Shown in pieces: positions 18,022 through 37,424 of a stretch of 38,955 nucleotides of DNA. Within the stretch, counting starts at the first letter, position 1. Every line of letters begins with the position of its first letter. Made by a program: the position numbers and the translations under genes. This DNA comes from a virus. Its lineage: Duplodnaviria > Heunggongvirae > Uroviricota > Caudoviricetes. Where the stretch lies: the IMG/VR virus record IMGVR_UViG_2939127364_000004; one strand, written 5' to 3'. The notes below the pieces were generated by a model. The model saw only the letters and a list, made by a program, of their open reading frames with translations, made no database searches and was not told the DNA's origin.

Positions 18022-18610
18022 TTTTCCTCACATATGTCATATAGTAAAGGATTATATATACCGTTGTTTTGGACGCTCAAACAGCGAATCAGATCAAATA
18101 AAACGCACATTTGTTAACATTTACACAAAGTCTGCGTGGGATATTCTGAAAGAATATCCATAATGTGGAGAGAATCTATTGAAGTGCATGGTGCCGGGTG
18201 CCTCCCGGTGAACAAAATGTTCGTGATACCTGTCGGCGACAGAAAAGGTTAATGGTATCACCCCACCGCACAGGGGGATTCACCATGCAGGAGTTTTCTT
18301 AGCAAACTCACTGCGCGCCCGGCAACTCCCAACCACATAAAATGCGGAGTTTGTGGTATTTATGCATATAACTCGCAGGAATTATCTTAAAAAACTGATG
18401 TCGATCCGGATTAAAAAGAAGCAGGTCATCATCAGATGACTGGAAAAAAGGAAAACAAAAAATACTCATCATACAGTTTTGATTGCAGGGATGAGCCTGC
18501 TATGCACAATATGCAGAATATAAGCAAGATAAAAATATGCAGGCATATTATTTCGGATTTTGTTATTAACACAACCTTTTTAATAATCATTTGGCATACA
18601 ATAAACCAGC

Positions 18611-20494: not shown

Positions 20495-20767
20495 TTCTCA
20501 ATCTCTCGATGGCGCAGTGCAGCAGATGCCAGTTGTTCAGGCTGACGTATAAAGTATAAATAAACTGGTTCCAGTGTAAAGCCCCCACCTTAATGGAATA
20601 AAAACCAAACAACAGATTGCTGGGATACAAACAACGCTTATTATTAAAAGCGGTTAAACAAATTAAATTTTAATGTTATGCAAATTTGTCAGATCACCAT
20701 AATATCTCATTTGAAAACCGCTGAAATAACAATCCTATCAGGATTAATCATATTAAGGTGAGTAAAT

Positions 20768-20854
20768 ATGGAAAACAACAAATCTGCACATTACGCTCCT
20801 TTTTTATCTGTAATACTTTTTGTTTTTTGCTGTGTATGGGCATTATTTTTATAA
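20768..20854 (+). CDS. Candidate 28-aa hydrophobic small protein (MENNKSAHYAPFLSVILFVFCCVWALFL), not in ORF track
   Basis: ATG 20768 preceded by AAGGTGAG SD at 7-nt spacing; possible sigma70 promoter TTATGC-17-ATAATA about 50 bp upstream; single predicted TM helix; convergent with hokD. Confidence 0.3.
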   Translation: MENNKSAHYAPFLSVILFVFCCVWALFL

Positions 20855-20962
20855 AAATATTCACAGATAAAATAAACTCGCCGAATCAGGTTAAGTGTGG
20901 GTGCGTTGAGGATGCCTGACACATCAGAGGCGGCGAGGGATTTCTCCCTCGCCTAGTCACTC

Positions 20963-21118
20963 TTACTCCTCAGGTTCGTAAGCTGTGAAGACAGCGACCT
21001 CCGTCTGACCGGTTCGGATTCGCACCTCGCAGAGGTCTTTCCTCGTTACCAGTGCCGTCACTATGACGGTTAAACAGATGACAATCAGTGCGACTAACAT
21101 CGCCTTTTGCTGCTTCAT
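20963..21118 (-). CDS. hokD: Hok/Gef-family type I toxin HokD (51 aa)
   Basis: MKQQKAMLVALIVICLTVIVTALVTRKDLCEVRIRTGQTEVAVFTAYEPEE; stable GGCGAGGGA-tttc-TCCCTCGCC hairpin 10 nt past the stop at 20932-20953. Confidence 0.85.
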   Translation of the reverse strand: MKQQKAMLVALIVICLTVIVTALVTRKDLCEVRIRTGQTEVAVFTAYEPEE

Positions 21119-21838
21119 AGCCTGCTTCTCCTTGCCTTCCGGCGCGTAAGAGGCTAACCTACATGTGCAAAGCATGAAATTGGCCTCAGATTAATGTTAA
21201 GCGTCTTGCCGGACGCGTAATGTTATCTGGGGCTTTTCTCTATCTGCCTTTGGTGTTCATGCCTGAGGCAGATAGCCTCAAGCACCCGCAGCAATTCTAC
21301 TTAACTCCCGTCACCTCGCCAATATAAAATCAATCAGAAAGGCGATCCATAAGAACAACAGCAAGACAATAAATTGCCATTACAGCCGCAATAGCTAGCG
21401 CACATTTGAGAACCAGCACGACAACCTCCTGTATTGGACGTACACCAGTTCTGATAAATATGAGGCTGTCTCATCATTGATTCAATATAACTATTGGGTA
21501 TAGTTTCTGTGATTTTGTTCTGTAGAAATGGAACACAACAACCAGTCACCACCAGCACTTCTTTAAATACGCCAAGTCCGACGCAAGCTAACCTTCTAGT
21601 CCGCTTTGAGCGAGGAGCGGACCAAACCCGGCCAACTGACTCTTAAAGGGGCCGCAGGAATTTTTCGTCTGAACTTTCGAAGCTCCTCTCCCTGAAGACA
21701 GAAAACTTCTGTGTGCTGTGGGAATATTGAATCTTTGCCTTAGATATAAATAATTTTATCCCGCCTGAAGTTTACATTATTTTATTTATCTGTTTTTCTA
21801 AATCAGACTGCACTCCTTACTTAAATCAGGAGCCAGTC

Positions 21839-23038
21839 ATGCCATTTGTTATTTATGTGTTTACTATCAGTGCCTTTGCGCTCGGACTCGCGGAATTTGT
21901 CCCCATTGGGCTGACAGACGTTATGGCTCAGGGGTTGTGTGTGGGTGTGGAGCAGACCGGGGCAGCGGTTACAACCTATGCACTGGGGGCAACGTTCGCG
22001 GCACCCGTACTGTCTGCGCTGACAGCAAGCTGGAGCCGGAAAAATGTAATGCTTACAACTGCCGTTGTGTTTACTGCCGGTAGTCTGGCGGCCGCGTTTG
22101 CAGCCACATTACCTCAGCTCCTGTTAGCGCGGTTCATTGCTGGTCTGGGACACGGCCTGTTTCTGGCTGCGGCATCCAGTACCGCAGCTCGTCTTGCTGG
22201 ACCGGGTAAAGCAGGCAGAGCGGTGGCTGTGGTATTTGGTGGCTTTACTCTGGCGATGGCAATCGGCGTACCGCTGAGTACATGGTTGGGGGGGGTGGTC
22301 TCATGGCGTCCAGTTCTCGGCGCTATTGCCGCTTTTGGCGCGTTCGGATTCCTTGGACTGTTGTTCGGTATGAAAGATCCCGTACGCAGCGTGCCCGGTG
22401 AACATAGTGACTCAGCAATGCAGAATATCGGCATGCTGTTTAACCGTAAGTTGCTGGCCGGCGCGCTGGTTACGGTGCTGGCGTATGCAGGCTCGTTTAC
22501 GGATTACACCTTTATCGCACCTATTCTGACGCAGGTGACAGGGGTTACCGGAGCAACGGTGAGTCTGTTTATGCTGGTTTACGGTATTACAGCTGCGGTA
22601 GGTAATATTCTTGGTGGGAAACTTACCGACAGCATGGGGGTTAATCGTGCCAATATACTCATCATTAGCGGCATTGTTGTTGTCGTGCTTGGTATGTGGC
22701 TGCTGTCATCCTCACCGGTGAGCATGGGCATTCTGGTTGCGCTGCTGGGTATGGTGACATTTGCCGCAGTGCCGGCACTGCAGGCCCGTCTGATTGGTGT
22801 CGCTGAGCAACATGCTCCTCATGCGCATGGTGTTGCTGCCGGCCTGAATATTGCGGGCTTCAACTCAGGTATAGCGCTGGGATCAGTACTGGGCAGCATT
22901 ACTATAAGCCACGCCGGTATCGTGTATACCGGTATCAGCGGTGCGATTGTTTCTCTGCTCGGCCTGCTGTTGCTGCTTGCACAAATCCGTCGCAGCCACA
23001 GTCGTAAATTTCAACAGGTTAAAATCGTAGGCCAGTAA
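21839..23038 (+). CDS. MFS transporter (12-TM, 399 aa)
   Basis: AGGAG SD; hydrophobic 12-helix pattern, Gly/Ala-rich, central cytoplasmic loop. Confidence 0.8.
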   Translation: MPFVIYVFTISAFALGLAEFVPIGLTDVMAQGLCVGVEQTGAAVTTYALGATFAAPVLSALTASWSRKNVMLTTAVVFTAGSLAAAFAATLPQLLLARFIAGLGHGLFLAAASSTAARLAGPGKAGRAVAVVFGGFTLAMAIGVPLSTWLGGVVSWRPVLGAIAAFGAFGFLGLLFGMKDPVRSVPGEHSDSAMQNIGMLFNRKLLAGALVTVLAYAGSFTDYTFIAPILTQVTGVTGATVSLFMLVYGITAAVGNILGGKLTDSMGVNRANILIISGIVVVVLGMWLLSSSPVSMGILVALLGMVTFAAVPALQARLIGVAEQHAPHAHGVAAGLNIAGFNSGIALGSVLGSITISHAGIVYTGISGAIVSLLGLLLLLAQIRRSHSRKFQQVKIVGQ

Positions 23039-23049
23039 AGGGAGGTTAT

Positions 23050-23742
23050 ATGCTTACCCGTGAAAATATGCTTAATGGCACATTTGTCAGGGTGCATGAA
23101 GCGCTGCTCCCGGCGAATATGCTCTGGGACGCTGAAAAAATACGCGCATCAATGAACTCTACTCTGGAGGAGCGCCCGACGGGTGCTCCTGTCTGGATAT
23201 TTGCCTACGGGTCATTGATGTGGAATCCCGTGCTGGCGATTGAAGAAATGCAACGGGCCCGTCTGAAAGGATGGCAGCGCAGTTTCTGCATTCGTTTGAT
23301 ATCCGGACGAGCGACTCCTGATGTCCCCGGCAGGATGTTATCGCTCGACGAAGGTGGAATTACCGAAGGTATTGCGTTCAGACTGCCGGAATCGACTCTT
23401 ATTAATGAGCTGGAAATTGTCTGGACGCGCGAGATGATAACCGGTCTTTACCGTCCGGTCTGGGCAGACGTTTCGCTAGGAAACGGTGAGGAAATTCAGG
23501 CGCTGGCTTTCGTATCAGACAGACTGCATCCGCATTATGAACAGGACAATCTTACAGCGACCGTAGCGTTGAGCATCGCATCTGCCCGTGGAGACATTGG
23601 CACGAATGCAGATTATGTATGGAAACTGCAGGCCACTCTGGGTGCGTTGGGAATACGGGATGATTACGTGAGTGAACTGGCCCTTGCTCTGCATGAGGCT
23701 CCCTGTAACGATAAACTTCATCAGCGAGGCGCTTCACTATGA
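23050..23742 (+). CDS. ChaC-family gamma-glutamylcyclotransferase-like protein
   Basis: GGAGG SD; WIFAYGSLMWNP (YGSL motif) and overall similarity to ChaC; 230 aa. Confidence 0.7.
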   Translation: MLTRENMLNGTFVRVHEALLPANMLWDAEKIRASMNSTLEERPTGAPVWIFAYGSLMWNPVLAIEEMQRARLKGWQRSFCIRLISGRATPDVPGRMLSLDEGGITEGIAFRLPESTLINELEIVWTREMITGLYRPVWADVSLGNGEEIQALAFVSDRLHPHYEQDNLTATVALSIASARGDIGTNADYVWKLQATLGALGIRDDYVSELALALHEAPCNDKLHQRGASL

Positions 23743-24620
23743 GCCATCTGAGCCATCTGCGAACGTTTCTTGAGGCCTATCGCTCTGGCTCCTTTTCAAA
23801 GGCGGCAGAACTACTGGGCATCACTCAGCCCGCGGCGTCACAGCATATCCAGTCTCTTGAGACTCTGGTTGGTAAGCGTCTGTTTATCAGGCAGGCCAGA
23901 GGCGTGACGGCAACCGAAGCTGCGGATGAGCTTGCCCGCTCAGTTTCACCCTTCATTGATGGTCTGGAAGAAAAGCTGTCCTCTTTCCGGTCAGGCTCTG
24001 TACGCGGGGGAACAATTAATCTGGCAGGACCGCCAGATTTTATTCATTCCCGGCTTGGGACAGTAATGGCTCCACTAATGAAGGAGGGGTATCGCCTACG
24101 CTTTCATACCGGCAATAAGCAACGTATTTATTCCCTTTTGCATGACGGGAGCGCCGATCTCGCTGTTACCGCATCTATGCCTGATGACCGTCTGTACGGC
24201 TATGCACATCTACTGACTGAACGCATGCTCCTTGTTCATGCTCCCGCCATGTCAGAGATCATCGGATCAGAACCTGGTGCTGAAACGCTTGCCTCATTAC
24301 CGCTGATTGCTTATGACGAAGAGTTGCCACTGATTAGAGCGCTCTGGGCCTCCATGTTTCAGAGAGCCCCTGAGATGCAGGCTACATTCACCATTCCGGA
24401 TTTACGTATTATCCGCGACTTGGTCTGTGACGGCCACGGGTGGACAGTGCTGCCGGATTATCACTGTGACAATGACCTGAAAAGTGGTCGCCTGATTTCA
24501 GTGACACCTGCAGACCTCGCTCCGACTAATCATCTTTATCTGGTCTGGAACAAAAGGACGGCTAATAACAGCCGAACCGCCTATGTTCGGGATTACATTC
24601 TTAAAACGTTTCCGCGTTGA
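23739..24620 (+). CDS. LysR-type transcriptional regulator
   Basis: N-terminal HTH LRTFLEAYRSGSFSKAAELLGITQPAASQHIQSLE; start overlaps ChaC stop (ATGA). Confidence 0.85.
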   Translation: MSHLSHLRTFLEAYRSGSFSKAAELLGITQPAASQHIQSLETLVGKRLFIRQARGVTATEAADELARSVSPFIDGLEEKLSSFRSGSVRGGTINLAGPPDFIHSRLGTVMAPLMKEGYRLRFHTGNKQRIYSLLHDGSADLAVTASMPDDRLYGYAHLLTERMLLVHAPAMSEIIGSEPGAETLASLPLIAYDEELPLIRALWASMFQRAPEMQATFTIPDLRIIRDLVCDGHGWTVLPDYHCDNDLKSGRLISVTPADLAPTNHLYLVWNKRTANNSRTAYVRDYILKTFPR

Positions 24621-24750
24621 TGTTTGAAACGGATGATTGGCGATGCGTATCATAAGTTACGTATGTCCGCTTCTGGCACAAAGCAGACGCCCACTCTCAC
24701 GCGAATGCTTTGCCCTTGACTTGCCAACAACCGTATCGCTTGCTCCGCAA

Positions 24751-26043
24751 CTATGGTTTTTTATTAGAATCTTCGCCACTAAATAAATTATAATAAATTG
24801 ATTTTATTAGATATCTGTCAGAATCTATATGGTCAGCACGAGTAGCATGCTCTAATGTTTCAAATGCTAGGGTTTGTGCGGCTTCAGCAAAAATTCCAGG
24901 CCAACCCTTACTCAGCATCGACAGTCCTTTAAGTACCCTTATCTGAATTTCCCTCATACTGGCACCATCGCGCGCAACAGGTGAGAAAAAGTCTTCAAGT
25001 AGATCGTTATTCTGAAGTGGTGCAACATGTACAGAAGGATATTTCACTTCTATTTCATCAGATTTATTCTGCGCGTAAGCGGAAAGTATACGTACACCTC
25101 TGCCAATGACATCAATGGCGGTTCCTGGATCGTTCACTGCGGGGGAAAGGGCTCGGCAGGCTATTTCGGCCATGACGCTAAGACAAAATCGGGGGTCCTG
25201 AGCAAATGAACGTACATCCGAGACAATAATCGTCTCAAGTAAATCGGTGCTGATTGATGACTCCTGGCCCTGACTCAGGTACAAAACTGGCGTGGACGGA
25301 TGTATGAAACTGCCCGGCTGCGCCACGAGGTATACATGACGGGGATCATTGGTCAGCAGCTTGCTGAGTTTCACCATATCAACATATTCAACATAGCCAA
25401 TCTTTTTCGGATAAACTGCAACCGTTCCTTTCGGCTGTTCATTGTTCTCAAGCCATGGATATCCGCCGAGACAGGGATTTCTTGCTCTCGCAATAAATGT
25501 TTCGATGGCCGCCTGTTCTACTTTTGCCGTTGTCTCACCAACCCTCCCCAGAGAGGTCAAATGCTGTATCCAGCGAAGCAATGTGATGAGGATTAAGGCA
25601 ATGACAACCAGTGTTACAATGAATAAAATGACTCTCCCCCTTTCTCCATAAGCTCCCATATTGAGGGCAATAATCCCTACCAGACTGAAGAGAAAAGAAC
25701 CGATGAAGGTGGCCAGTACATTTTGTGTGGTGACGTCTTCAACAACTAAACGAGTAGCTCTGGGAGTCACATTAGTAGTGGCTGAACCGTAGGCTGTGAC
25801 CATGATGCTCAGCGAAAATGTGGTCACTGCCAGCATACTCGATGCCAGTATGTTCAGAATGTTATCGACTGCTTCCGCACCAACCTTCACGGAAACCGAC
25901 TCAGGTATCATTGATTTAAAAAGAATTGATAAAAGGGCCGTTATTATTGCGACAATTGCGAATAACGTTGCCCTGAACCATAGTTTTTTAAATGTCTGCT
26001 TCAGCATCCATTTCCAGCGTGAAATCATTCTGCATTCCCTCAT
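24751..26043 (-). CDS. DUF2254-family membrane protein (N-terminal TM domain plus soluble C-terminal domain)
   Basis: 430-aa ORF with 4-5 N-terminal TM helices; family from recollection; alternative start at 26028 has better SD. Confidence 0.5.
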   Translation of the reverse strand: MRECRMISRWKWMLKQTFKKLWFRATLFAIVAIITALLSILFKSMIPESVSVKVGAEAVDNILNILASSMLAVTTFSLSIMVTAYGSATTNVTPRATRLVVEDVTTQNVLATFIGSFLFSLVGIIALNMGAYGERGRVILFIVTLVVIALILITLLRWIQHLTSLGRVGETTAKVEQAAIETFIARARNPCLGGYPWLENNEQPKGTVAVYPKKIGYVEYVDMVKLSKLLTNDPRHVYLVAQPGSFIHPSTPVLYLSQGQESSISTDLLETIIVSDVRSFAQDPRFCLSVMAEIACRALSPAVNDPGTAIDVIGRGVRILSAYAQNKSDEIEVKYPSVHVAPLQNNDLLEDFFSPVARDGASMREIQIRVLKGLSMLSKGWPGIFAEAAQTLAFETLEHATRADHIDSDRYLIKSIYYNLFSGEDSNKKP

Positions 26044-26063
26044 ATTGCAGCCGGGATAAATAA

Positions 26064-26084
26064 ATGCCGCCTCTGTGGCGGCAT
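26064..26084 (-). terminator. Intrinsic terminator downstream of BCCT transporter gene
   Basis: Minus strand ATGCCGCC-acaga-GGCGGCAT followed by TTATTTAT. Confidence 0.5.
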
Positions 26085-26091
26085 GTTGCTG

Positions 26092-28095
26092 TTAACGAAC
26101 CAGATGCAGGAAGTGCAGGTGTTTTTCGTACTGGTCCAGTATGTCATTAATCAGCTGTTCCTGATTCCAGCCCATTACATCATAATTTTGGCCGCCCTCT
26201 TTGAGATAGACTTCAGCGCGATAATATCGATGTTGTTCACTCTGCTGCTCATCATTATCCAGCGCAGCGAGCGCGAAGGTCGGTGAGTTATACCCGCGAA
26301 GCCTCACTTCATATATATAATTCAGCTCGTTGCCCAAATCGACTTCAAGGCGAATACGATCCTCGGCGGCGTCACTGATGTGGCTTATCGTTCCCTGCTT
26401 GTTAAGTTCCTCCTGAACCAGCGTCATGGCGGGTTGGATAATGTCGTCCATAAAACGTTTCACAAGAGAGCGCTTCGGCAAATACGCGATATTGCGTAAC
26501 CTTCTCTGCCAGGGAATTGGGTTACGTGCAGCCGTAGGAGCAATAGTCGCCATGCTAAGGCTTTCACGCTTGGTCAAATCCCGACGCAGGGCTTTTAACA
26601 GTCCGTATATGGATATTAATAAGATAACTGAGAAGGGCAATGCACTCGCTATCGTTACGGTTTGCAACGCACTCAGCCCCCCTGCGATCAGCAGGGCAAT
26701 AGCAACAACGCCCATGAGCGATGCCCAGAAAATTCGCTGCCAGACGGGCGTGTTTGCCACCCCACCTGATGCCAGAGTATCCACAACCATTGCCCCCGAA
26801 TCAGCAGACGTTACAAAGAAGACGATGACCATCGCCATTGCAATGAATGACAGCACGGAAGAGAACGGGAAATGCTCCAGGAAATTAAACAGGGCAAGCG
26901 CAACATCCTGCTGAACGGTATTGGCGAGGTCAGTGGCGCCCTGGTTCATGATGAGATAGATGGCGCTGTTTCCAAACACCGTCATCCACATGAGCGTAAA
27001 GCCGGCGGGAACAAACAACACGCCAGTCACGAACTCACGAATTGTCCTGCCGCGGGAAACGCGTGCAATGAACATACCTACAAACGGCGACCATGAAAGC
27101 CACCATCCCCAGTATAATAATGTCCAGCCCCCCAGCCAGTTGCTCGACTTGGGTTCATACGCGTAAAGGTTGAACGTTTTACTCACCAGTTCCGACAGAT
27201 AACCACCCGTATTTTCCACAAATGACTTCAGCAGAAGCACAGTGGGACCCAGGCACAAGACCAGCGCCAGGAGCAACACCGCCAGGCCCAGATTAAGCTC
27301 AGACAGGATGCGTATTCCCTTGTCCAGGCCGGACACCACCGAAATCGTCGCTAACCCCGTGATGACCACGATCAAAATGACCTGTACCGTTTCATTGATG
27401 GGCACGCCGAAAAGATGGTTCAAACCGGCATTCACCTGCAATACACCGTAACCCAGCGATGTTGCAACGCCAAAGACAGTGCCTATCACGGCGAAGATAT
27501 CAACCGCGTGGCCTATAGGCCCGTAAATGCGATCGCCGATAATGGGATAGAGCGCAGAACGCAGCGTTAAAGGCAGACCGTGACGGTAACTGAAAAAGGC
27601 CAGAATCAGCGCCACGATGGCATAAATTGCCCATGCGTGCAGACCCCAGTGGAAGAACGTCAGGCGCATGGCTTCCTTCGCTGCCGCAACGGTCTCTGGA
27701 GTGCCGACAGGTGGCGAAAGATAATGCATCACAGGTTCGGCAACGCCAAAGAACATCAGGCCGATCCCCATCCCTGCCGAAAAAAGCATCGCGAACCAGG
27801 AGTGGTAGCTGAAATCAGGCTGCGCATGGTCTGGGCCCAGCTTTATATCACCGTAACGTGAGAGTCCAAGGAACGTGACGCTCAGTAAAATCAGGGCCAC
27901 AGCAAGTATGTAGAACCAGCTGGCATTCGTGAAGATTTGTTGCTGAAGTAGTTTAAAATTTTTGTCGGCGACATCCGGGAATACGGCGGCAAAGGCGACA
28001 AGAAGGAAAATTAGCAAAGCAGATGTAAAGAATACCGCTTTGTTAATCTGGCTTGTAGACTTCTTTGGGGTTGTATCATTTTCACTCATAATCAT
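26092..28095 (-). CDS. BCCT-family transporter, BetT-like (667 aa with long cytoplasmic C-terminal tail)
   Basis: Conserved BCCT blocks (WTLLYWGWWLSWSPFVGMFIARVSRGRTIREF); length and C-terminal extension as in choline transporter BetT but sequence clearly distinct from E. coli BetT. Confidence 0.85.
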   Translation of the reverse strand: MIMSENDTTPKKSTSQINKAVFFTSALLIFLLVAFAAVFPDVADKNFKLLQQQIFTNASWFYILAVALILLSVTFLGLSRYGDIKLGPDHAQPDFSYHSWFAMLFSAGMGIGLMFFGVAEPVMHYLSPPVGTPETVAAAKEAMRLTFFHWGLHAWAIYAIVALILAFFSYRHGLPLTLRSALYPIIGDRIYGPIGHAVDIFAVIGTVFGVATSLGYGVLQVNAGLNHLFGVPINETVQVILIVVITGLATISVVSGLDKGIRILSELNLGLAVLLLALVLCLGPTVLLLKSFVENTGGYLSELVSKTFNLYAYEPKSSNWLGGWTLLYWGWWLSWSPFVGMFIARVSRGRTIREFVTGVLFVPAGFTLMWMTVFGNSAIYLIMNQGATDLANTVQQDVALALFNFLEHFPFSSVLSFIAMAMVIVFFVTSADSGAMVVDTLASGGVANTPVWQRIFWASLMGVVAIALLIAGGLSALQTVTIASALPFSVILLISIYGLLKALRRDLTKRESLSMATIAPTAARNPIPWQRRLRNIAYLPKRSLVKRFMDDIIQPAMTLVQEELNKQGTISHISDAAEDRIRLEVDLGNELNYIYEVRLRGYNSPTFALAALDNDEQQSEQHRYYRAEVYLKEGGQNYDVMGWNQEQLINDILDQYEKHLHFLHLVR

Positions 28096-37027: not shown

Positions 37028-37222
37028 ATGAGATATGACAATGTTAAACCATGTCCATTTTGTGGTTGTCCATCAGTAACGGTGAAAGCCATTTCAGGAT
37101 ATTACCGAGCGAAGTGTAACGGATGCGAATCCCGAACCGGTTATGGTGGAAGTGAAAAAGAAGCACTCGAAAGATGGAATAAACGAACCACTGGAAATAA
37201 TAATGGAGGTGTTCATGTATAA
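37028..37222 (+). CDS. ralR: Restriction alleviation protein RalR/Lar (64 aa)
   Basis: MRYDNVKPCPFCGCPSVTVKAISGYYRAKCNGCESRTGYGGSEKEALERWNKRTTGNNNGGVHV. Confidence 0.8.
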   Translation: MRYDNVKPCPFCGCPSVTVKAISGYYRAKCNGCESRTGYGGSEKEALERWNKRTTGNNNGGVHV

Positions 37223-37424
37223 AATTACCGCCACTATTGAAAAGGAAGGTGGCACTCCTACTAACTGGACAAGATATTCAAAATCTAAACTAACGAAATC
37301 AGAATGCGAAAAAATGCTCTCAGGTAAAAAAGAAGCAGGCGTTTCCAGAGAGCAGAAAGTAAAACTGATAAATTTTAATTGCGAGAAACTTCAGTCCTCG
37401 AGAATTGCATTGTATTCAAATTAA
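37215..37424 (+). CDS. ydaC: YdaC/RcbA-like small protein (69 aa)
   Basis: ATG 37215 with GGAGGTG SD overlapping ralR 3' end; position before xis. Confidence 0.5.
   Translation: MYKITATIEKEGGTPTNWTRYSKSKLTKSECEKMLSGKKEAGVSREQKVKLINFNCEKLQSSRIALYSN

Follow-up and report, generated by a model that had tools for sequence, protein, structure and literature searches.

The stretch of viral DNA considered here, IMG/VR record IMGVR_UViG_2939127364_000004 (38,955 nucleotides (nt); its full length is called the window), contains two small genes that converge on one another. The first, on the minus strand, is hokD (20963-21118), and the second, on the plus strand, is a 28-codon open reading frame (ORF; 20768-20854, MENNKSAHYAPFLSVILFVFCCVWALFL), with 108 nt between the two stop codons. 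A lambdoid prophage surrounds the two genes. Leftward of them the minus strand encodes DUF1367, DUF1364 and DUF1133 (Q-like) proteins, and after these come the lysis and terminase genes. The window is 100% identical to many Escherichia coli chromosomes, in which hokD is the only RefSeq feature within 20500-21800. An earlier, sequence-only reading of the stretch had singled out an "orphan" hokD toxin gene and, about 110 bp away on the opposite strand, an unannotated ORF for a small hydrophobic peptide, and as a description of the layout this was accurate. Our analysis points to a different interpretation, which we consider probable: two independent modules placed tail to tail in a Rac-type lambdoid prophage, namely a hok/mok/sok locus and an autonomous AT-rich cassette that carries the small gene.

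The hok/mok/sok locus

The 51-amino-acid (aa) product of hokD (MKQQKAMLVALIVICLTVIVTALVTRKDLCEVRIRTGQTEVAVFTAYEPEE), annotated under that name by RefSeq in the identical E. coli genomes, scored 83.6 bits against the Pfam profile of the Hok/Gef family (HOK_GEF, PF01848; cut-off 22) and E = 4e-13 against the NCBIfam Hok subfamily, the latter below that family's curated cut-off. As the sequence-only reading had claimed, there is neither relE nor relB upstream of hokD, and no relBE appears in the RefSeq annotation of the identical genomes; the arrangement known from the Qin prophage of K-12, with relBE directly upstream of a hokD that has no leader of its own, is not the one found here. Instead, a hok leader, mok and sok occupy this position, and the hok region could be aligned along its full length to K-12 hokC/mokC/sokC, with the hok start at 21118. 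The mok gene (20963-21175, minus strand; 70 codons) runs in the frame of hok and shares its stop codon, and its ATG at 21175, which lies 9 nt downstream of a GAGG Shine-Dalgarno (SD) sequence, aligns with the annotated start of K-12 mokC. A search for a sok-like antisense promoter upstream of hokD had been proposed earlier; the analysis gave a predicted Sok antitoxin RNA at 21167-21243 on the plus strand, its coordinates being carried over by alignment from the annotated K-12 sokC. It is preceded by a promoter-like site, read by eye, consisting of TTGCCT (21132-21137), a 17-nt spacer and TAACCT (21155-21160). The predicted fold of this RNA has a 9-nt single-stranded 5' tail, a long hairpin (-30.6 kcal/mol) with an 18-nt insertion relative to the Rfam model and to hokC, and a U-rich tail. 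On the hok strand, the Rfam sok/hok-leader model (RF01794) matched 21113-21287 with 116 bits against a gathering score of 59.

The remaining elements are also in place. The hok promoter (21322-21294, minus strand), located by a promoter scan and by the hokC alignment, comprises TTGGCG (21322-21317), a 17-nt spacer and TAGAAT (21299-21294), and the 5' end of the hok mRNA, with position 1 of the Rfam model falling at 21287, carries the tac element GGGTGCTTGAGG (21287-21276, minus strand). Complementary to this end is the fbi element CCTCAACGCACCC (20899-20911, minus strand). The minimum-free-energy fold of the 422-nt hok mRNA (21287-20866) has an energy of -164 kcal/mol (z = -5.4), and in it the first 12 nt are engaged, with 5' GGGUGCUUGAGG pairing with 3' CCUCAACGCACCC at 20899-20911. 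The characteristic 3' stem-loop reported by the earlier reading was recovered from sequence and folds as the GC-rich structure GGCGAGGGA-GAAA-TCCCTCGCC (20932-20953, minus strand), which is kept in K-12 Qin. Beyond it lies the terminator region (20856-20892, minus strand), made up of a hairpin at 20875-20892 and a T-run, where homology to K-12 Qin stops. The hairpin is degraded in the window allele (AACCTGATTCGGCGAGTT, -5.4 kcal/mol) by comparison with most relatives (AACCCGCTTCGGCGGGTT, -13.9 kcal/mol), which might permit read-through between the convergent genes. By every defining feature that can be read at the sequence level, the hok module is a complete and ordinary member of the hok/sok family, and with its own mok, Sok RNA, promoter and tac/fbi elements hokD is no orphan.

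By analogy, the locus most likely works by the R1 paradigm. Pairing of tac with fbi would hold the 5' and 3' ends of the message together and keep the stable hok mRNA untranslatable, 3' trimming would then enable translation of mok and in turn of hok, and the Sok RNA would pair with the leader and trigger decay of the hok mRNA, thereby blocking hok translation. The part played by the mok SD sequence and the tac/fbi fold-back mechanism are described in PMC9841398. K-12 HokD is reported to be toxic when overexpressed, there is a general enrichment of hok genes in prophages, and editing of adenosine to inosine by TadA recodes a Tyr codon to Cys in the hokC, hokD and hokE mRNAs, giving "cysteine 46" (bioRxiv 10.1101/2025.08.07.668861). 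In the window, Tyr47 of hokD (20978-20980, minus strand) is encoded by TAC followed by G (GCTTACGAA). We take codon 47 to be the edited site and TACG to be the recognition motif, in which case the motif is retained in the window allele.

Comparison with known hok systems supports this placement. The locus shares with R1 hok/mok/sok and with K-12 hokC/mokC/sokC a Hok/Gef toxin, an in-frame mok, a Sok antisense RNA over the mok start, a leader, a promoter and the tac/fbi pair, but differs from them in its position in a prophage nin region, in the 18-nt insertion in the Sok hairpin and in the degraded terminator hairpin. For chromosomal hok loci, the literature cited in bioRxiv 10.1101/2025.08.07.668861 holds that they mediate no post-segregational killing. 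The hokW-sokW locus of the Sakai prophage Sp5, for which a role in phage release has been reported (PMC8621323), is likewise, by its description, a hok/sok-type locus on an E. coli lambdoid prophage. A further comparison is with relBE-hokD (relF) of K-12 Qin, where HokD is nearly identical (a single difference, I9V) and the 3' untranslated region (UTR) is the same to about 95 nt past the stop codon. Homology, however, is confined to the interval between about 12 nt upstream of the hokD ATG and that point (approximately 20871); in K-12, relE ends 71 nt upstream of hokD, mok, Sok, the hok promoter and tac are missing, no Rfam sok match is found at the K-12 Qin hokD locus, and rem lies downstream where the window has the small-gene cassette. 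Taken together, the limits of homology, the upstream relE and the missing sok match indicate that it is the K-12 arrangement which is truncated, a derivative keeping only the hokD coding and 3' parts, and that the window locus is intact. The earlier view of the window copy as an orphan without the relBE of Qin is thereby reversed. Other E. coli prophages, as well as Salmonella, Citrobacter, Pantoea and Erwinia, likewise have hok beside rem and DUF1367, and the order hok/sok-rem-DUF1367-DUF1364-Q is therefore old.

The 28-codon gene and its conservation

The small ORF is preceded by a ribosome-binding region (20754-20767, plus strand) with the SD sequence AGGTGA (20756-20761) 6 nt before the ATG, which bears out the strong SD sequence noted previously. 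Most clades retain TTAAGGTG in this region, one having the weaker form AAAGYGAG instead. Residues 1-9 of the encoded peptide are polar (MENNKSAHY), and the following 19 residues (10-28), all hydrophobic or small, run to the C-terminus. The peptide has a grand average of hydropathy (GRAVY) of 1.17 and a best 19-residue Kyte-Doolittle mean of 2.57, and its hydropathy profile contains one hydrophobic helix, residues 10-28, with a Cys-Cys-x-Trp core, in agreement with the single transmembrane segment read earlier. RefSeq annotates the ORF in none of the rows examined; with 87 nt including the stop codon it is shorter than the 90-nt minimum of common gene callers. By a rough estimate, about one ORF of at least 28 codons is expected by chance in a stretch of this kind (27% G+C), and the ORF list of the window shows several of similar size.

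Because its length alone is unremarkable in AT-rich DNA, we tested whether the ORF is conserved, using loci (n = 112) picked by a 29-nt anchor that lies outside it. The 28 codons were intact in 110 of these loci, the other two being interrupted by an insertion sequence upstream, and no inactivated copy of the ORF was seen among approximately 160 loci. Conservation in related loci, which the sequence-only reading had named as a test of the ORF, was thus found. Comparison of the major clades gave 69-70% identity and 11-14 gap columns for the intergenic DNA upstream, but 83-86% identity and no gaps for the ORF, whose pairwise ratio of non-synonymous to synonymous divergence (pN/pS) lies between 0.34 and 0.58. 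We then reconstructed substitution events by a minimum-spanning network of 21 alleles. There were 40 distinct events in the ORF, half of them synonymous and half non-synonymous, spread 7/11/22 over the three codon positions. When the same base changes were placed at random, a mean of 9.6 were synonymous compared with the 20 observed (P = 0.00025). The simulated probability that start, stop and frame would all be retained was 0.021, the probability that no polar or charged residue would appear in codons 10-28 was 0.015, and the probability of both was 0.0003; no observed event brings a polar or charged residue into the membrane segment. Of the six frames compared, that of the 28 codons collected the most synonymous changes, and no other stays open at constant length in all alleles. 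Even the most divergent allele, from a locus labelled L113, encodes MENNKSAHYAPFLSIILFVCCFIWALFL with at least six synonymous differences. We conclude that the 28-codon ORF is under protein-coding selection, and that it is very likely a real gene.

The gene is common within a narrow range of hosts. Out of 5426 complete E. coli genomes, 1194 were matched by a 321-bp probe of the segment, and in 1164 the coverage was at least 80%; identities ran from 100% down to 72%, and no annotated feature lay under the match in any row examined. In the 72% identity class, homology ends exactly at the ORF stop codon. The segment is also present in four deposited Escherichia phage genomes (blastn; tblastn of phage records gave the same four), and among species-representative genomes the ORF was confined to loci of Shigella flexneri and Escherichia ruysiae. 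A synteny search via DUF1367 found rem at the position of the small ORF in Salmonella, Citrobacter, Pantoea, Erwinia and Serratia. We also scanned for divergent alleles with patterns that excluded the known ones, in that Asn4 had to be encoded as AAT or the Pro codon had to differ from CCT; these scans returned only L113 or nothing from viral contigs and nine matches from metagenome contigs, all due to chance. Four alleles were absent from an exact look-up in about 15 billion proteins, and Pfam, NCBIfam and PHROGs offered no credible family, the best values (E = 0.0089 in PHROGs, for a variant allele, and 0.046 in NCBIfam) belonging to unrelated families. The gene is a new small-protein family, young and restricted to Escherichia prophages.

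In kind, the gene is like those for small hydrophobic proteins that ribosome profiling has revealed in K-12 prophages (YnfS, 29 aa, in Qin; YnaM/YnfT). These resemble the window peptide in size, in their polar N-terminus and Cys-containing hydrophobic C-terminal helix, and in being encoded in the intergenic DNA of lambdoid prophages. In contrast to that group, the window peptide belongs to no NCBIfam family and is absent from the K-12 Qin hokD region; YnfS was considered as a homologue and rejected, there being no sequence similarity between the two. We infer that the 28-aa peptide is translated and expressed in the lysogen, where its most likely place is the inner membrane. The positive-inside rule (Lys5) would put the polar N-terminus in the cytoplasm, and the 19-residue helix would end the protein. 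In that position it most likely serves as a small membrane protein, perhaps through contact with a membrane protein of the host or a phage.

The AT-rich cassette and alternative readings

The small gene lies in DNA whose composition sets it apart, with a G+C content of 27% in the cassette compared with 51% in the hok locus and 47% in the window. Alignments to K-12 Qin and to other rem-containing prophages skip 20547-20870, showing that rem has been replaced by an AT-rich segment in the window. A survey of contexts (162 loci, 82 distinct sequences) reduced the part common to all loci to the interval from about 20637 to the stop codon at 20854. To its right we found the hok 3' end, a DUF1971 gene, a pair of S8 peptidase and FtsH-like genes or, in L113, the end of a tail-fibre operon; to its left, DUF1367, a ydfU-like gene or unrelated DNA. 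In at least three of the right-hand contexts (hok 3' end, DUF1971 and S8 peptidase) homology ends right at the ORF stop codon, and the hairpin that follows the stop codon differs from context to context. In L113 the left limit of homology coincides exactly with that of the common block (about 20637). An ORF derived from rem by degeneration was rejected as an explanation, since the DNA has no similarity to K-12 rem and the ORF lies on the opposite strand.

Among 102 loci with at least 2.5 kb of downstream sequence, hok lay within 300 nt in 56 and at 300-1500 nt in 12, and in 34 there was no hok within 3 kb. Adjacency to hokD is explained by descent, with no need for functional pairing, because the cassette took the place of rem in the order hok-rem-DUF1367. 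These data show the small gene to be a selected coding unit that is modular and independent of hok, and its peptide probably does not work together with hokD, beside which the sequence-only reading had listed it. The cassette (about 20637-20854) would then be an autonomous unit of the moron type that replaced rem between hok and DUF1367/DUF1364/Q. Phage morons are autonomous cassettes, such as bor and lom of phage lambda. Like them, the window cassette is a discrete low-G+C insert between conserved phage genes, directed against the flanking operon and found at varied sites (at least four right-hand and three left-hand contexts), including one beside tail-fibre genes. It differs from them in that the 28-aa product is far smaller than classical moron proteins and in that its promoter and terminator are candidates only.

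The upstream part of the cassette has features of its own. Its most conserved block, CTTATTATTAAAAGCGGTTAAACAAATTAAATTTTAATGTTATGCAAA together with the left end (20637-20686, plus strand; 50 nt, 82-131 nt upstream of the ATG), is likely a promoter or regulatory region. At the left edge of this block is a small hairpin of the form CGCTT-8-AAGCG (20635-20652). Further in, RNAalifold predicts a conserved stem between AUGUUAUG and CAUAAUAU (20675-20682 with 20698-20705, plus strand), in which one pair is a standard one in 17 of 17 diverse sequences only as plus-strand RNA (G-U in 11, G-C in 6). The sequence CATAATAT (20698-20705), considered as a -10 element of the small gene, forms the 3' arm of this stem and was dropped. 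Next to it, a weak candidate for an anti-SD sequence, CUCAUUU (20706-20712, plus strand), can pair with AAGGUGAG; 85.5% of cells in this helix are paired and there is one AU-to-GC double change, a level no better than in shuffled sequences. The shuffle test gave no statistical support to this SD-sequestering helix or to a small hairpin at 20734-20748. On the minus strand, a promoter-like candidate composed of TTTCCA, a 16-nt spacer and TATGAT (20774-20747) is antisense to the 5' UTR of the small gene, and its -10-like xAxxAT is, by eye, kept across clades. These features fit a regulated 5' UTR and allow for a cis-antisense RNA; they do not establish either.

They do, however, bear on the alternative that the 28-aa peptide is the toxin of a new type I toxin-antitoxin cassette, with a 5' UTR that can hide the SD sequence and a cis-antisense RNA that represses it. 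That RNA would start at about 20740 on the minus strand, end at the hairpin at 20652-20635 and pair with the 5' UTR. We regard this as unlikely, though several findings are compatible with it. The peptide has the size and hydrophobicity of such toxins, being a small hydrophobic membrane peptide; the minus-strand promoter-like site sits at the 5' end of the gene; the terminal hairpin, which in one clade keeps its pairs solely when read as minus-strand RNA (plus-strand AC and CA becoming G-U and U-G), is followed by TTGTTTGT; the plus-strand stem and the anti-SD pairing suit a regulated leader; and conservation is higher in the upstream block than in the ORF, as an overlap of sense and antisense transcripts predicts. 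On the other hand, the hairpin has only 5 bp and an 8-nt loop, the U-run is absent in L113, the covariation is no better than in shuffles, -10-like hexamers are expected by chance at 27% G+C, and the SD sequence is strong and weakly sequestered in the predicted folds. No toxin family was matched in Pfam, NCBIfam or PHROGs, the loci surveyed hold no inactivated copies, and the peptide lacks the charged termini that are common in type I toxins such as TisB, Ldr, Zor and Hok. Set beside Ibs, ShoB, TisB, ZorO, DinQ and Ldr, the short E. coli toxins of type I, it is alike in being hydrophobic and no longer than 35 aa and in having a structured 5' UTR and what may be an antisense promoter, but it has no family match and no convincing antitoxin RNA gene. 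The fuller proposal would make the 220-bp cassette a new module, similar to type I toxin-antitoxin systems and restricted to Escherichia, with a 28-aa membrane toxin and a cis-antisense RNA on its 5' UTR, standing beside hok/sok; it seems to us distinctly unlikely. The earlier suggestion of a type I toxin or small membrane regulator thus stands as far as size and hydrophobicity go; it found no counterpart among known toxin or small-protein families, and the signs of an antisense RNA are suggestive only.

Several points weigh against the two-module account itself. Transcription and translation of the ORF are predictions from the sequence, and the plausible promoter that had been credited to it was not borne out: no plus-strand sigma-70 site upstream of the ORF exceeded the threshold of the consensus scan, and the candidates picked by eye are weak. 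The test for coding selection rests on a minimum-spanning-network reconstruction of close, possibly recombining alleles. In the six-frame comparison, the antisense frame that has its wobble positions in common with the ORF came second (17 of 40 changes synonymous), although some alleles interrupt it with stops and it starts beyond the limits of the cassette. Homologues were found in Escherichia and Shigella only, so deep conservation could not be used, and the direct adjacency of hok in about 55% of the informative loci makes some functional link possible. One could accordingly suppose that the ORF is untranslated, and that the segment is kept as a DNA or RNA element (a module boundary, a promoter or operator, or a small RNA) in which the open frame is incidental. 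Consistent with this, chance alone would supply an ORF of such length in AT-rich DNA, conservation is even higher in the non-coding block at 20637-20686 than in the ORF, and the ORF is a prediction from the DNA whose peptide strings matched no paper in a full-text literature search. We nevertheless consider it very improbable, since it does not account for the excess of synonymous and third-position changes (P = 0.00025), the preservation of length, start, stop and hydrophobicity in all alleles (joint P = 0.0003), the absence of indels from the ORF against 11-14 gap columns upstream, the conserved SD sequence, or homology that ends exactly at the stop codon in several contexts.

Least credible is a coupling to hok, in which a transcript of the small gene would pass the weak shared terminator, run antisense to the hok 3' UTR with its fbi element, and alter the 3' processing or stability of the hok mRNA, so giving the toxin a second control. 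The short convergent spacing, the lack of a U-tract after the hairpin on the plus strand, the degraded hairpin of the window allele and the 56 of 102 loci with hok directly adjacent would suit it, but one third of informative loci have the cassette without hok, the cassette also occurs beside unrelated genes, homology that stops at the stop codon leaves no conserved 3' UTR in common with hok, and adjacency is explained by replacement of rem. We consider this coupling exceedingly improbable and retain the account of two independent modules.

Neighbouring elements and wider meaning

The contexts of the cassette hold further features. In its commonest clade (72% identity, 424 genomes; L003-L005) the DUF1971 gene stands between the cassette and hok, and the Hok/Gef gene there (L004, 4227-4352) is truncated to 41 aa, ending in ...RTGRRRL. 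In phage vB_EcoS-683R6 (L006, 3349-6321) the cassette is followed, on the opposite strand, by genes for an S8-family peptidase and an FtsH-like protein, which could be a cargo pair of the defence type. The left part of the AT-rich replacement segment (20547-20636) is common to the DUF1367 and ydfU-like contexts and absent from L113. It contains the best sigma-70-like site of the region (10/12), a minus-strand TTTACA, 16-nt spacer and TATACT (20580-20553) that faces DUF1367-DUF1364-Q and is kept wherever the AT-rich segment adjoins DUF1367 or ydfU-like genes. This candidate promoter may drive the genes of the nin/Q region independently of pR. In several genomes (L126, L129, L100, L176, L177), IS2-like and IS1 elements have inserted into the AT-rich DNA that separates the cassette from the DUF1367 gene.

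Elsewhere in the prophage, an Rfam scan of the whole window matched RalA, the antitoxin RNA of the Rac RalR/RalA type I system, at 37221-37399 (minus strand, 225 bits), and the STnc100 small RNA at 18132-18318 (minus strand, 86.6 bits), downstream of the Q-like gene. Together these two matches mark the element as a Rac-type prophage, and the RalA match brings the RNA-antitoxin systems in the window to two at least. Rightward of hok, 21839-28095 forms a block of non-phage cargo inside the prophage, with an MFS transporter, a gamma-glutamylcyclotransferase, a LysR regulator, DUF2254 and a BCCT transporter. In strain HS30-1, where this block corresponds to L001 19691-24344, an ISApl1-mcr-1-PAP2-ISApl1 composite transposon is inserted directly after it.

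A second small ORF lies immediately upstream of the hok promoter. It encodes a 29-aa hydrophobic membrane peptide (MLVLKCALAIAAVMAIYCLAVVLMDRLSD; 21330-21419, minus strand) from a GTG start with the SD sequence AGGAGG 5 nt upstream, and it shows coding selection: of 25 substitution events, 15 were synonymous compared with 6.9 expected (P = 0.00045), and the events fell 4/5/16 over the codon positions. One frameshifted allele was seen. The 320 bp around this ORF occur in up to 2651 of 5426 complete E. coli genomes. It has no RefSeq annotation in the rows examined, and GenBank at times calls it a putative membrane protein.

For the hok family, these results mean that the hokD (relF) of K-12 known from textbooks is a truncated remnant, that the intact hokD/mok/sok locus is the widespread prophage form, and that this form is the one for functional work. 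For the small gene, they mean that a sequence below the usual length limit of gene callers, and unannotated, nonetheless bears the clear mark of coding selection, and that about one fifth of complete E. coli genomes have it, as do deposited Escherichia phages. Were the cassette to prove type I-like after all, this prophage slot, which also has the 29-aa gene at 21330-21419, would be a cluster of small peptides active on membranes and missed by gene callers. The 28-aa and 29-aa genes together provide two testable targets for work on small proteins in the prophages of commensal, avian and clinical E. coli, and the possible roles to test for both include membrane toxicity, phage exclusion and the modulation of host membrane proteins.

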